The notes under the pieces: model-generated
The model's database searches: none
What the model was told of the DNA's origin: nothing
The model's input: the letters and a program-made list of their open reading frames with translations, nothing else
Source of the DNA: a virus
Taxonomy: Duplodnaviria > Heunggongvirae > Uroviricota > Caudoviricetes
Virus record (IMG/VR): IMGVR_UViG_2671180460_000005
Direction: 5' to 3' (one strand)
Length of the DNA: 16,724 bases
Program-made: the position numbers and the translations under genes
Part shown: positions 7,476 to 8,764 of the stretch, in pieces
Layout: every line of letters begins with the position of its first letter
How positions within the stretch are numbered: the first letter of the stretch is position 1

Positions 7476-8219
7476 ATGACAGAGACTGAATCAGCGATTC
7501 TGGCGCACGCCCGGCGATGTGCGCCAGCGGAGTCGTGCGGCTTCGTGGTGAGAACGCCGGAGGGGGAAAGATATTTTCCCTGCGTGAATATCTCCGGTAC
7601 TCCGGAGGCGTGTTTCCGGATGGTACCGGAAGACTGGCTGCGGGCACAAATACAGGGTGAGGTGGTGGCGCTGGTCCACAGCCATCCCGGTGGTCTGCCC
7701 TGGCTGAGTGAAGCCGACCGTCAGCTGCAGGTACAGAGTGATTTGCCGTGGTGGCTGGTCTGTCGGGGGGCTCTCCATAAATTCCGCTGCGTGCCACATC
7801 TGACCGGAAGGCGCTTTGAGCACGGGGTGACGGACTGTTACACGCTGTTCCGGGACGCTTATCATCTGGCAGGAATTGAGATACCGGATTTTCATCGTGA
7901 GGATGACTGGTGGCGTAACGGTCAGAATCTTTACCTGGACAACATGGCGGATACCGGCTTTTACCCGGTCACCCTGTCAGCGGCGCAGCCGGGCGATGTG
8001 CTGCTGTGCTGCTTTGGTTCATCGGTGCCGAATCATGCCGCTATTTACTGCGGCGACGGCGAGCTGCTGCACCATATTCCTGAACAACTGAGCAAACGAG
8101 AGAGGTATACCGACAAATGGCAGCGACGCACACACTCCCTCTGGCGTCACCGGGCATGGCGCGCATCTGCCTTTACGGGGATTTACAACGATTTGGCCGC
8201 CGCATCGACCTTCGTGTGA
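7476..8219 (+). CDS. K: Tail tip assembly protein, lambda gpK-like, with JAB/MPN metalloprotease-type motif and NlpC/P60-type cysteine peptidase domain
   Basis: ATG at 7476. JAMM-type motif HSHPGGLPWLSEAD (H-x-H-x7-S-x2-D) at about 7677-7718. NlpC/P60-like Cys (GVTDCYTLF) and His (NHAAIYCGDGELLHH) residues downstream. The ORF is open to 8219, giving 247 aa; the last roughly 34 codons overlap I. Confidence 0.85.
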   Translation: MTETESAILAHARRCAPAESCGFVVRTPEGERYFPCVNISGTPEACFRMVPEDWLRAQIQGEVVALVHSHPGGLPWLSEADRQLQVQSDLPWWLVCRGALHKFRCVPHLTGRRFEHGVTDCYTLFRDAYHLAGIEIPDFHREDDWWRNGQNLYLDNMADTGFYPVTLSAAQPGDVLLCCFGSSVPNHAAIYCGDGELLHHIPEQLSKRERYTDKWQRRTHSLWRHRAWRASAFTGIYNDLAAASTFV

Positions 8220-8764
8220 AAACGGGGGCTGAAGCCATCCGGGCGCTGGCCACACAACTTCCGTCGTTTCGTCAGAAACTGAGTGACGGCTGGTATCAGG
8301 TACGTATCGCCGGGCGGGATGTCAGCGAGTCCGGAGTAACGGCACAGCTCCATGAGCCGTTACCGGACGGTACGGTGATCCACATTGTTCCCCGGCTTGC
8401 CGGTGCAAAGCATGGCGGAATTTTTCAGACCATCCTGGGGGCTGTGGTTGTTGCGGTAGCCTGGTGGAATCCCGCGGGCTGGCTGGGTGCGGCAGCACTT
8501 ACGGGGATGTATGCCGCCGGGGCCAGTATGATCCTCGGCGGGATAGCGCAGATGCTGACACCGGCCATCAAAACGCCGTCCATGGAGTCCGCGGATAACG
8601 GCAAACAGAACACCTTTTTTTCCTCGCTGGATAATATGATCGCCCAGGGGAATCCGTTACCGGTACTGTATGGTGAGATGCGAGTGGGGTCGCGTGTGAT
8701 TTCACAGAGTATCAGTACTGCTGATGAGGGTGATGGTGGTCAGGTTGTGGTGATTGGTCGCTGA
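8117..8764 (+). CDS. I: Tail tip assembly protein, lambda gpI-like
   Basis: Product MAATHTLPLASPGMARICLYGDLQRFGRRIDLRVKTGAEAIRAL... and C-terminus ...NGKQNTFFSSLDNMIAQGNPLPVLYGEMRVGSRVISQSISTADEGDGGQVVVIGR match lambda gpI as I recall it, with a hydrophobic Gly/Ala-rich middle segment. ATG at 8117 is the first start after an in-frame stop; an alternative ATG lies at 8156. Confidence 0.88.
   Translation: MAATHTLPLASPGMARICLYGDLQRFGRRIDLRVKTGAEAIRALATQLPSFRQKLSDGWYQVRIAGRDVSESGVTAQLHEPLPDGTVIHIVPRLAGAKHGGIFQTILGAVVVAVAWWNPAGWLGAAALTGMYAAGASMILGGIAQMLTPAIKTPSMESADNGKQNTFFSSLDNMIAQGNPLPVLYGEMRVGSRVISQSISTADEGDGGQVVVIGR

Follow-up and report, generated by a model that had tools for sequence, protein, structure and literature searches.

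The overlap of tail genes K and I in a lambda-like prophage is probably a dual-coding region maintained by selection

The tail genes K and I of a lambda-like prophage share 103 nt of the same strand, and from sequence comparisons we conclude that this overlap is very probably dual coding maintained by selection. By the window we mean the whole stretch of viral DNA that was analyzed, 16,724 nt in length. In its ORF list and translations, K runs from an ATG at 7476 to a TGA at 8217-8219, starting 5 nt after the stop of L, and I runs from an ATG at 8117 to a TGA at 8762-8764. As (8117-7476) mod 3 = 2, I lies in the -1 (+2) frame relative to K. These coordinates confirm the original prediction, made from the letters of the window, of a 103-nt overlap with I in the -1 frame, and the letters that it quoted from the K tail, WQRRTHSLWRHRAWRAS..., are correct. 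The overlap is real but is an already known, annotated feature of the lambda-like phage group; it is not peculiar to the window and is the annotated state of reference lambda. The genes and the two parts of their overlap are as follows.

7476..8219, + strand: gene K, tail-tip assembly protein (247 aa plus stop)
8117..8764, + strand: gene I, tail-tip protein (215 aa plus stop)
8117..8219, + strand: K/I overlap (103 nt including the K stop; I in the -1 frame of K)
8117..8155, + strand: overlap part 1 (K residues 214-226 over I residues 1-13)
8156..8216, + strand: overlap part 2, probable dual-coding core (K W228-V247 over strand 1 of I and the next loop; MARICLYGDLQRFGRRIDLRV)

Synonymous divergence falls in both frames only where K and I overlap. 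Across six independent sequence pairs, pS was 0.42 at I codons 15-30 vs 0.78 at codons 37-97 (Fisher 1.3e-8), and 0.36 at K codons 228-243 vs 0.69 upstream (Fisher 1.2e-6). In unsaturated pairs, which are not phylogenetically independent, the ratio of pS at codons 1-16 to pS at codons 23-83 was 0.32 in the overlap clade, compared with 0.92 and 0.87 in homologues that lack the deep overlap. Each frame thus restrains synonymous change in the other. The synonymous-site analysis over 8117-8219 that had been proposed with the original prediction thus finds constraint in both frames of the core and no drop in the control homologues. Three readings had been left open, namely true dual coding, non-functional read-through and a frameshift fusion, and these results support the first. 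Within the E. coli population, which is shallow, diversity is low in the block 8003-8242 before as well as after the point where the overlap begins, and part of this could come from shared recent ancestry instead of selection; for the overlap core, the deep independent pairs argue against such a cause.

Of 5426 complete E. coli genomes, 4399 carry the K-I locus. Among 208 loci surveyed, the 123 lambda-like ones all have the I core in the +2 frame, beginning 55-64 nt inside K; its start in other K-I lineages lies -11 to +63 nt from the K stop, or >300 nt downstream. A 34-codon open alternative frame has a chance of ~0.2 in random sequence and is not rare for one sequence, but the K frame is open over I in all 123 lambda-like loci, and the position of its stop varies by no more than a few codons. 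Across the clade, both frames are open and encode homologues of K and I. The K tail is kept in Escherichia, Salmonella, Citrobacter, Yersinia, Edwardsiella, Budvicia, Chania, Limnobaculum, a Morganella phage and mEp013, and the K extension is limited to the lambda/Gifsy/mEp013/Morganella lineage. Shorter K variants (212-226 aa) were considered as tail-less forms and rejected, as all are internal in-frame deletions that retain the tail.

The window is close to the reference phages. In lambda (NC_001416), K (14276-14875) and I (14773-15444) have an identical 103-nt overlap, and likewise in phage 434, whose K is annotated as the same 247-aa form; the 247-aa K proteins of E. coli prophages are ~92% identical to K of the window. 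Lambda and 434 share with it the gene order L-K-I-J, the frame relation of the overlap, the K tail, the I N-terminus and the domains, and the first 49 I residues are identical to those of lambda. The differences from lambda are a nucleotide identity of ~86-87% over the locus, an I that is here 8 residues shorter, in the Gly/Ala-rich linker, and a RefSeq lambda K that begins at an internal ATG (199 aa).

The two parts of the overlap differ in which protein they serve. In part 1, K residues 214-226 close the NlpC/P60 domain and recur in distant K proteins, which share ...RT..[ILV][WLV]RH at this point. I residues 1-13 are a poorly conserved N-terminal leader confined to the lambda-like clade, and Budvicia and Limnobaculum relatives have I-frame stops in the equivalent stretch, a short way upstream of their I start. 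The K frame is dominant over 8117-8155: pN/pS is 0.25, and at deep divergence pS stays unreduced (0.84). Pairs from within the lambda clade, which are not phylogenetically independent, show a ~4-fold drop in K synonymous divergence there. In part 2, K residues ~227-247 are a clade-specific C-terminal extension over strand 1 of the I ubiquitin-like domain, and the K motif [SY][AG]F[TL][GA]I.[NAE]D[LMI] in this extension is kept down to ~52% K identity. The 34 codons had been described as an Arg/Trp-rich K tail; the first 12-13 residues (KWQRRTHSLWRH), however, are the conserved last NlpC/P60 strand, found also in non-overlapping K proteins. The AF2 model places this strand at K residues 220-225, already inside the overlap (block 221-230, pLDDT ~82), then predicts a helix at 230-244 with low confidence (pLDDT 36-54), and is uninformative at 239-247. 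The K C-terminal tryptic peptide is ASAFTGIYNDLAAASTFV, and the gpI N-terminal peptide from M1 is MAATHTLPLASPGMAR.

If K reached 8219 simply for lack of a stop, its last ~20 residues would be inert and conserved by constraint on I alone. The I frame leaves few chances for K-frame stops, AF2 confidence is low at K residues 230-247, and distant K proteins work with other, unrelated or very short tails, all of which would fit such non-functional read-through. Selection on I only, however, would free the third positions of I, and these synonymous third positions (K second positions) change at only ~0.3-0.5 times the rate seen elsewhere in I. The I codons GAT(D22), CAA(Q24), CGA(R25) and TTT/TAT(F26) hold their third base in most lineages, to ~52% K identity, with CGA(R25) unchanged in 11 of 11 aligned lineages, and the synonymous drop is absent from non-overlapping homologues. 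The original prediction had named, as signs against a dual-coding overlap, K homologues that end before the I start and a stop codon lost uniquely here; neither was found in the aligned relatives. Non-functional read-through is thus rejected as very unlikely. Less likely still is an RNA element, acting in the control of I translation or as a general 5'-end effect, that constrains the I synonymous sites in place of the K protein. Such 5'-end effects are known in general, and the constrained stretch closely follows the I start codons, yet the first 16 I codons of non-overlapping homologues lack reduced pS (0.92 and 0.87), and the constraint fades at K residues 243-247, ahead of the K stop. The region also folds less stably than shuffles (z +1.58), and an alignment of 11 diverged sequences gives an essentially unstructured consensus fold (-0.83 kcal/mol, no covarying pair), so RNA structure was rejected as the source of the constraint.

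I matches lambda gpI over its full length (PDB 8IYK chain I, E 9.8e-108). It had been predicted to have a compact N-terminal domain and a hydrophobic Gly/Ala-rich middle, in agreement with both the Pfam Lambda_tail_I match and the sequence. Its features, including its start sites and the hairpin that follows it, are these.

8100..8105, + strand: Shine-Dalgarno-like GAGAGG, 11 nt before the I start, inside K codons R-E-R
8156..8158, + strand: second in-frame ATG of I (M14), the start position of distant relatives, without a Shine-Dalgarno sequence in the window
8156..8407, + strand: ubiquitin-like (Lambda_tail_I) domain of I, residues 14-97 (Pfam PF06805, E 1.6e-25)
8414-8419, + strand: G100-G101 of the conserved ...VPR.AGAK.GG after the ubiquitin-like domain
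8420..8566, + strand: Gly/Ala-rich hydrophobic region of I, about residues 102-150 (from sequence and alignment to lambda gpI)
8498..8761, + strand: C-terminal plug domain of I, residues 128-215 (PDB 9E7M and 8IYK matches)
8782..8810, + strand: GC-rich hairpin plus T-run, terminator-like, between I and J, outside the overlap and flanking the K-I pair

The beta-grasp assignment of I residues 14-100 rests on published work (PMC1779556). The ...VPR.AGAK.GG stretch, with the terminal Gly of the ubiquitin-like domain, is kept across the clade and in distant relatives. The Gly/Ala-rich region matches lambda gpI helices H1 and H2, which are predicted to insert into the membrane (PMC11101478), and the plug domain corresponds to lambda gpI residues 135-223, which are the ones seen in the structure of the virion tail tip (PMC10721106). 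In lambda structures, gpI is visible only from residue 101 or ~135 onward (PMC10721106, PMC11101478). Residue 101, one of these published resolution limits, falls at the Gly-Gly. The mass-spectrometry table in the supplement of PMC10721106 lists a single gpI peptide, at protein level and with no peptide sequence given. The I-J hairpin has a dG of -16.7 kcal/mol (z -2.8), and a terminator is annotated at the equivalent position in phage 434.

The start of I bears directly on whether a long overlap exists at all. GAGAGG co-occurs with ATG 8117 in the lambda-like clade, both are lost together in distant relatives, and phage 434 has an RBS annotated at the position of GAGAGG. The long overlap would vanish if I began at GTG 8216, overlapping the K stop, as a protein of 182-190 aa; this RefSeq/PGAP choice is found in the annotations of mEp460 and E. 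coli N61, and a review gives gpI as 190 aa. We rejected this start and consider it extremely improbable: the Pfam domain of I already begins at residue 14 (M14), strand 1 (ICLYGDLQRFG) is kept in all relatives, even where it lies outside K, the GTG codon is GTA, ATA or GTC in relatives, and no Shine-Dalgarno sequence precedes it. In addition, K synonymous sites over 8157-8204 are constrained (pS 0.36 vs 0.69), as in a second data set of pairs that are not phylogenetically independent (0.030 vs 0.247). With its non-conserved GTG, the PGAP/RefSeq choice loses the first strand of the I ubiquitin-like domain from the annotation. Programmed -1 frameshifting in the overlap, which would yield a K-I fusion as in lambda G-T, has an equally slender chance. 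The frame of I relative to K is indeed -1, databases do contain rare K-I fusions, and one is recorded in PMC1779556. However, I owns a Shine-Dalgarno sequence and an ATG, and none of the five database fusions examined belongs to a cluster of more than two sequences; they either differ in their junctions or contain several frame errors, and they are due to indels or sequencing errors. A scan of all of K found no X XXY YYZ slippery heptamer in the K frame, the overlap contains no homopolymer of 5 or more, and no stable or conserved stimulatory structure was found downstream (z +1.58; no covariation). GGGAAAG at 7564-7570 in K was discarded as a candidate; it is not in the frame that slippage requires, and the window contains it no more often than chance predicts. 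The fusion, already judged far-fetched in the original prediction, thus gains no support from a slippery site, a conserved structure or a recurrent fusion.

K had been predicted to carry JAMM and NlpC/P60 signatures, and the lack of either profile match was to count against this; both profiles matched significantly. The domains and their key elements are listed here.

7485..7769, + strand: JAB/MPN+ (JAMM) metallopeptidase domain of K, residues 4-98 (Pfam PF14464, Prok-JAB)
7530-7532, + strand: catalytic Glu E19 of the JAMM domain
7677-7718, + strand: JAMM motif HSHPGGLPWLSEAD, K residues 68-81
7806..8147, + strand: NlpC/P60 (C40) peptidase domain of K, residues 111-224 (Pfam PF00877)

Prok-JAB (PF14464) scored 52 bits (cut-off 25; E 7.6e-14) and NLPC_P60 (PF00877) 48.6 bits (cut-off 23; E 8.7e-13), the latter covering profile positions 1-105 of 105. 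The JAMM pattern E...HxH-x7-S-xx-D is intact (E19, H68, H70, S78, D81), and the NlpC/P60 catalytic residues are C121 (in DCY), H187 (in NHAA) and H199. All eight residues are invariant among 16 relatives, as are their equivalents in four distant relatives. The AF2 model of K alone is of moderate confidence (pLDDT 71) and has an MPN fold in its N-terminal half (pLDDT 66-93); it matches Pyrococcus JAMM1 (5LD9; E 2.7e-5, rmsd 2.7 over 107 columns) and also Rpn11 and CSN5. Published work reports gpK to be missing from lambda virions (PMC10721106, PMC11101478).

With the JAMM deubiquitinases (Pyrococcus JAMM1-SAMP2, Rpn11, CSN5), K thus shares motif and fold. The likeness to prokaryotic Ubl/JAB systems extends to an adjacent ubiquitin-like partner ending in Gly-Gly (Iyer et al. 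2006; PMC1779556), and the literature link of K-I to ubiquitin-like systems mentioned in the original prediction does exist (Iyer, Burroughs and Aravind 2006; PMC1779556). In contrast to JAMM-ubiquitin systems, no E1 or E2 is encoded. As I is a structural protein whose N-terminal part is the ubiquitin-like domain, the expected reaction would be release by cleavage, not deconjugation. The literature searched contained no report of zinc-dependent (iso)peptidase activity of K on a ubiquitin-like substrate, and the search found no paper devoted to the K/I overlap as such.

Other phages share the proteins but not the deep overlap. T1-like (Drexlerviridae), Dhillonvirus and Klebsiella phages (e.g. 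Sf12, EKW, SO-1, EKq1) have a JAMM plus NlpC/P60 K with the same catalytic residues and, directly downstream, an I with a ubiquitin-like domain. Their overlap, however, is only 10-26 nt, over a few non-core I residues, with I in the +1 or +2 frame; their K tails are unrelated in sequence, and their I lacks synonymous constraint. In HK97/HK022-like phages (e.g. HK544), K and I are homologous to those here, but K stops 4 residues past ...LRH and at least one extra gene lies between the two, so there is no overlap. Lambda G / G-T likewise has two tail-assembly frames in one operon related by -1, but it needs a slippery heptamer and yields a fusion protein, and K-I has neither. Viral overprinted extensions resemble the K tail in being a younger, lineage-restricted, probably poorly ordered peptide over an older domain, with synonymous rates lowered in both frames; K-I differs in that only ~20 codons are involved, as a C-terminal extension and not a new gene.

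In the model that we propose for the dual-coding overlap, K would be an assembly protein that is absent from the virion, with JAMM metallopeptidase and NlpC/P60 cysteine peptidase domains, and I would consist of an N-terminal ubiquitin-like domain ending in Gly-Gly, a hydrophobic hairpin and a C-terminal plug in the tail tip. I would be translated independently from GAGAGG (8100-8105) and ATG 8117, both inside K, and not by frameshifting. Over its first 39 nt, the overlap would encode the end of the K peptidase domain together with the weakly conserved 13-residue I leader, and over the next ~60 nt the ~20-residue K extension together with the first beta-strand of the I ubiquitin-like domain. 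The extension probably arose by overprinting, through loss of the K stop or an upstream shift of I in the ancestor of the lineage. From published work, the JAMM domain of K would be expected to cut I at the Gly-Gly that closes the ubiquitin-like domain. With low confidence, we suggest that the extension may be an amphipathic helix that docks on I or on another protein of the tip; given the low AF2 confidence (pLDDT 36-54), both the helix and a docking role are speculative. The candidate amphipathic face consists of F233, I236, Y237 and L240. A fuller version, which is rather improbable, is that the extension is a de novo overprinted peptide that acquired a function tying K to I, for example as a helix that docks K on I or the tip complex and aligns the JAMM site with Gly100-Gly101, where I would be cleaved.

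The value of the overlap lies mostly in annotation and experiment design. The PGAP/RefSeq GTG start strips strand 1 from I in thousands of E. coli prophage copies and, conversely, lambda RefSeq cuts the JAMM domain of K short. Mutations in 8156-8204 affect both K and I, which is relevant to lambda tail engineering, genome refactoring and the interpretation of K and I mutants. The K-I locus also provides a small, clear-cut case of an overprinted extension that is specific to one clade and probably under purifying selection. Mosaic recombination is typical of lambdoid phages, and if the K extension does dock on I, the overlap would lock enzyme and substrate into co-inheritance under such recombination.

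The window is a lambda-like prophage tail module, with its genes arranged as follows:

H, 3405-6434, tail module gene
M, 6431-6763, tail module gene
L, 6773-7471, tail module gene
K, 7476-8219, tail-tip assembly gene, 247 aa by translation
I, 8117-8764, tail-tip gene, 215 aa by translation
J, 8825-12223, tail module gene

The original prediction described an out-of-frame K/I overlap, a JAMM (JAB/MPN+ metallopeptidase) motif in K and a K tail running past the I start; ORFs and translations agree with it on coordinates, frame relation, motif and tail. The common stretch, 8117-8219, is 103 nt with the K stop included, and relative to K, I is read in the -1 (+2) frame. 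The second base of a K codon thereby serves as the third of an I codon, and the third base of a K codon as the first of an I codon. Between I and J, a GC-rich hairpin followed by a T-run (8782-8810; dG -16.7 kcal/mol, z -2.8) was overlooked by a simple terminator scan, and phage 434 has a terminator annotated at the equivalent site. Upstream, gene G ends in CCG GAA AAG TCC TGA (3084-3098), with the T ORF (3107-3421) in the -1 frame. As GGGAAAG, which we take to be the lambda-type G-T slippage heptamer, is absent from this junction, the slip site may be a variant, GGAAAAG or A AAG.

The domains predicted for both proteins were borne out. Pfam places Prok-JAB on K residues 4-98 (E 7.6e-14) and NLPC_P60, over its whole profile length, on residues 111-224 (E 8.7e-13). 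The JAMM residues (E19...H68-x-H70-x7-S78-xx-D81) and NlpC/P60 residues C121, H187 and H199 do not vary across 16 relatives at 67-91% identity, nor do their equivalents in four relatives at ~30%. The AF2 model of K (mean pLDDT 71) matches Pyrococcus JAMM1, both free and bound to the ubiquitin-like SAMP2, as well as Rpn11 and CSN5. I is homologous over its full length to lambda gpI (PDB 8IYK, E 9.8e-108): its compact N-terminal domain is Lambda_tail_I (residues 14-97, E 1.6e-25), the Gly/Ala-rich hydrophobic stretch follows, and the last 88 residues match the virion-resolved portion of gpI. The suggested literature link to ubiquitin-like systems is genuine, in that Iyer, Burroughs and Aravind assigned protein I a beta-grasp domain of the ThiS/MoaD type, ending in Gly, and proposed that the K JAB domain releases it (2006; PMC1779556). 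On every feature tested, the pair belongs to the lambda K and I families.

The overlap is the normal state of the lambda-like phage group. Reference lambda (K 14276-14875, I 14773-15444 as annotated) has an identical 103-nt overlap, and in phage 434 the 247-aa K, the window's I start and an RBS ahead of I are all annotated. Among 5426 complete E. coli genomes, 4399 carry similar DNA, the median being three copies; 269 phage records contain it too. In a large protein database K homologues are overwhelmingly 242-249 aa long, and variants of 212-226 aa are internal in-frame deletions that retain the tail. The tail is kept in Escherichia, Salmonella, Citrobacter, Yersinia and Edwardsiella, in Budvicia, Chania, Limnobaculum and one Morganella phage at 52-58% K identity, and in mEp013 at 43%. 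The pattern named as refuting, in which relatives' K ends ahead of the I start and a stop was uniquely lost here, is not what these relatives show.

Eight E. coli K proteins (P0042, P0047, P0053, P0055, P0065, P0075, P0079, P0083) have differing internal in-frame deletions of 20-29 residues that take out the JAMM motif or the NlpC/P60 Cys, all with the C-terminal tail kept; they probably belong to decaying prophages. K-I loci matching lambda's also lie on contigs (L085-L097, L107, L110, L111, L120, L122, L123, L127) in assemblies of unrelated organisms (Neobacillus, Pseudoxanthomonas, Chromatium, Shewanella, Bradyrhizobium, Enterococcus, Kitasatospora, Vibrio and others), several short or at ~1x coverage, and look like lambda DNA contamination. 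RefSeq starts lambda K at an internal ATG (NC_001416 14276-14875; 1277-1876 of our locus L004), giving a 199-aa protein that is short of 48 N-terminal residues and, with them, the JAMM Glu; the window and phage 434 agree with the 247-aa form, which begins immediately downstream of L. I of Morganella phage IME1369_01 (L130 1824-2417) and of Burkholderia phage vB_SBP33 (L136 1908-2501) is annotated from a downstream start that loses all or most of the ubiquitin-like domain, and in both an ORF with the conserved first beta-strand of that domain (strand 1) is open upstream. Common annotations of K and I are thus each wrong at one end, an incremental novelty.

The K tail has two parts. Residues 214-226, KWQRRTHSLWRHR, are part of the NlpC/P60 domain: the Pfam match extends to residue 224, a strand occupies 220-225 in the AF2 model (block 221-230, pLDDT ~82), and distant K proteins that do not overlap I share the C-terminal element, as YWQERTMKILRH (HK544), YYRERTVRIVRH (Sf12) and PWLDRTRLVLRH (a Pseudomonas phage). 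These distant proteins end 4-15 residues past ...RH, in unrelated sequences. Of the tail originally predicted, only residues ~227-247 therefore stand as a true extension.

If selection acted on I alone, changes at its third codon positions would go unchecked and disrupt the K sequence. We compared synonymous divergence (pS) in six phylogenetically independent pairs drawn from 13 diverged lineages.

Synonymous divergence in the overlap and in reference segments
I codons 15-30 (inside K), pS 0.42; I codons 37-97, pS 0.78; Fisher p 1.3e-8
K codons 228-243, pS 0.36; K codons 139-213, pS 0.69; Fisher p 1.2e-6
K codons 214-226, pS 0.84 (slightly higher, no reduction); K codons 139-213, pS 0.69; Fisher p 0.035

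These comparisons indicate that both frames are under selection in the overlap, for which they are new, if incremental, evidence. The third bases of I codons GAT(D22), CAA(Q24), CGA(R25) and TTT/TAT(F26), unchanged in most lineages down to ~52% K identity (CGA in 11/11 aligned sequences), are the middle bases of K I236, N238, D239 and L/M240. Counting only sites silent in the other frame, the effective strength is roughly 0.3-0.5 in the K extension and roughly 0.1 in the I core. In K, the constraint fades across the final four or five residues.

Neither a general 5'-end effect nor codon bias explains the lowered pS. In homologues with a non-overlapped I core, its first 16 codons accumulate synonymous changes at the pace of the remainder, with early/rest pS ratios of 0.92 and 0.87 vs 0.32 in the overlap clade (unsaturated pairs; an all-pairs version was also computed). 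RNA structure is ruled out by a single-sequence fold of the overlap region worse than its own shuffles (z +1.58) and by a consensus fold of 11 diverged sequences with no covarying pair (-0.83 kcal/mol). Mosaic recombination has some claim: identity with lambda is 92-100% over 8003-8242 and 97-100% over 8033-8242, falling to 65-85% in flanking K and I sequence, and since the block begins ~110 nt ahead of the overlap, part of the local conservation may owe to this history, not to dual coding. The remote K-I frameshift fusion in the original prediction found no backing: K, read in its own frame, contains no X XXY YYZ heptamer, runs of five or more identical bases are missing from the overlap, and neither the single-sequence fold nor the 11-sequence consensus fold shows a stimulatory structure. 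The GGGAAAG starting at 7564 falls out of frame, and the motif is about as common as chance predicts. Five database K-I fusion proteins fall in clusters of one or two sequences, four with different junctions (after QRRT, NDF, AAAS and AAASI) and the fifth with several frame errors; they are indels or sequencing errors.

Three starts for I are in circulation: ATG 8117, used for lambda (223 aa), by UniProt and in cryo-EM papers; ATG 8156 (8156-8158, M14); and GTG 8216, overlapping the K stop and used by the RefSeq pipeline PGAP (182 aa here, 190 in lambda). RefSeq/PGAP annotates I from this GTG (8216-8218) in two compared loci (L001 1418-1966 and L221 1217-1765), and a 2020 review too quotes gpI as 190 aa; the codon is GTA, ATA or GTC in relatives, lacks a Shine-Dalgarno (SD) sequence and would cost strand 1. 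Members of the lambda/Gifsy-like clade keep ATG 8117 together with a GAGAGG that precedes it by 11 nt, and their M14 has no SD and is CTG in some. The Budvicia/Chania/Limnobaculum/Morganella group has no upstream ATG or SD there and starts at the M14 position, behind GGAGG/GGAGA built from K Trp-Arg codons (TGG AGG); Budvicia and Limnobaculum have stops in the I frame just upstream. These clade patterns indicate that the conserved I protein begins at about residue 14, and that the likeliest I start in the window is 8117, which gives the protein a 13-residue leader. At 8140-8158 and its counterparts (L117-L121, L130), the distant clade spells K Trp-Arg as TGG AGG/AGA, an SD for an I start 8-9 nt downstream; the lambda clade spells it TGG CGN and is served by the upstream SD and ATG. 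Synonymous codon choice in K thus goes with which start I uses. At depth the leader shows poor conservation, but it is constrained within the E. coli population, where K synonymous divergence over it is 0.065 vs 0.247 upstream, with the caveat that the whole block 8003-8242 is low-diversity there.

Profiles for K and for the I ubiquitin-like core covered 208 loci. For 123 lambda-like loci, all with I in the +2 frame, the start of the I core falls within the K ORF at a depth of 55-64 nt. T1-like, Webervirus, Dhillonvirus, Burkholderia and other lineages place it anywhere from -11 to +63 nt relative to the K stop, with annotated overlaps of 10-26 nt; in HK97-like phages it comes >300 nt past that stop, after inserted genes. 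In HK97/HK022-like and other phages (L134 1950-2174; ~40 IMG/VR loci among L141-L220), the core lies 336-905 nt after the K stop because at least one extra gene is inserted. The pair tolerates separation, and the survey shows the deep overlap to be a derived feature of one lineage. We infer that the I strand is older than the K extension printed over it.

The overlap was already known, being annotated in lambda, and its domain interpretation dates from 2006; new but incremental are the findings that one half of the tail belongs to a domain and the other is an extension, and that the deep overlap is lineage-specific. Most likely, K and I are translated separately from the late transcript, with I initiating at its own SD and ATG within K. 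K probably acts as an assembly factor; it is undetected in virions by mass spectrometry and unresolved in every tail structure (PMC10721106, PMC12617516). I ends as a trimeric plug in the tail tip, where gpI is visible only from residue 101 in the closed state (PMC11101478) and from about residue 135 in other structures (PMC10721106, PMC12617516). Residue 101 is at the Gly-Gly closing the ubiquitin-like domain; visibility from there agrees with removal or disorder of that domain, and with the 2006 proposal that the K JAMM cuts at Gly-Gly. For the K extension, AF2 gives a low-confidence prediction of a helix, one face of which would carry F233, I236, Y237 and L240, and our best guess is that it may help K dock to I or to the tip complex.
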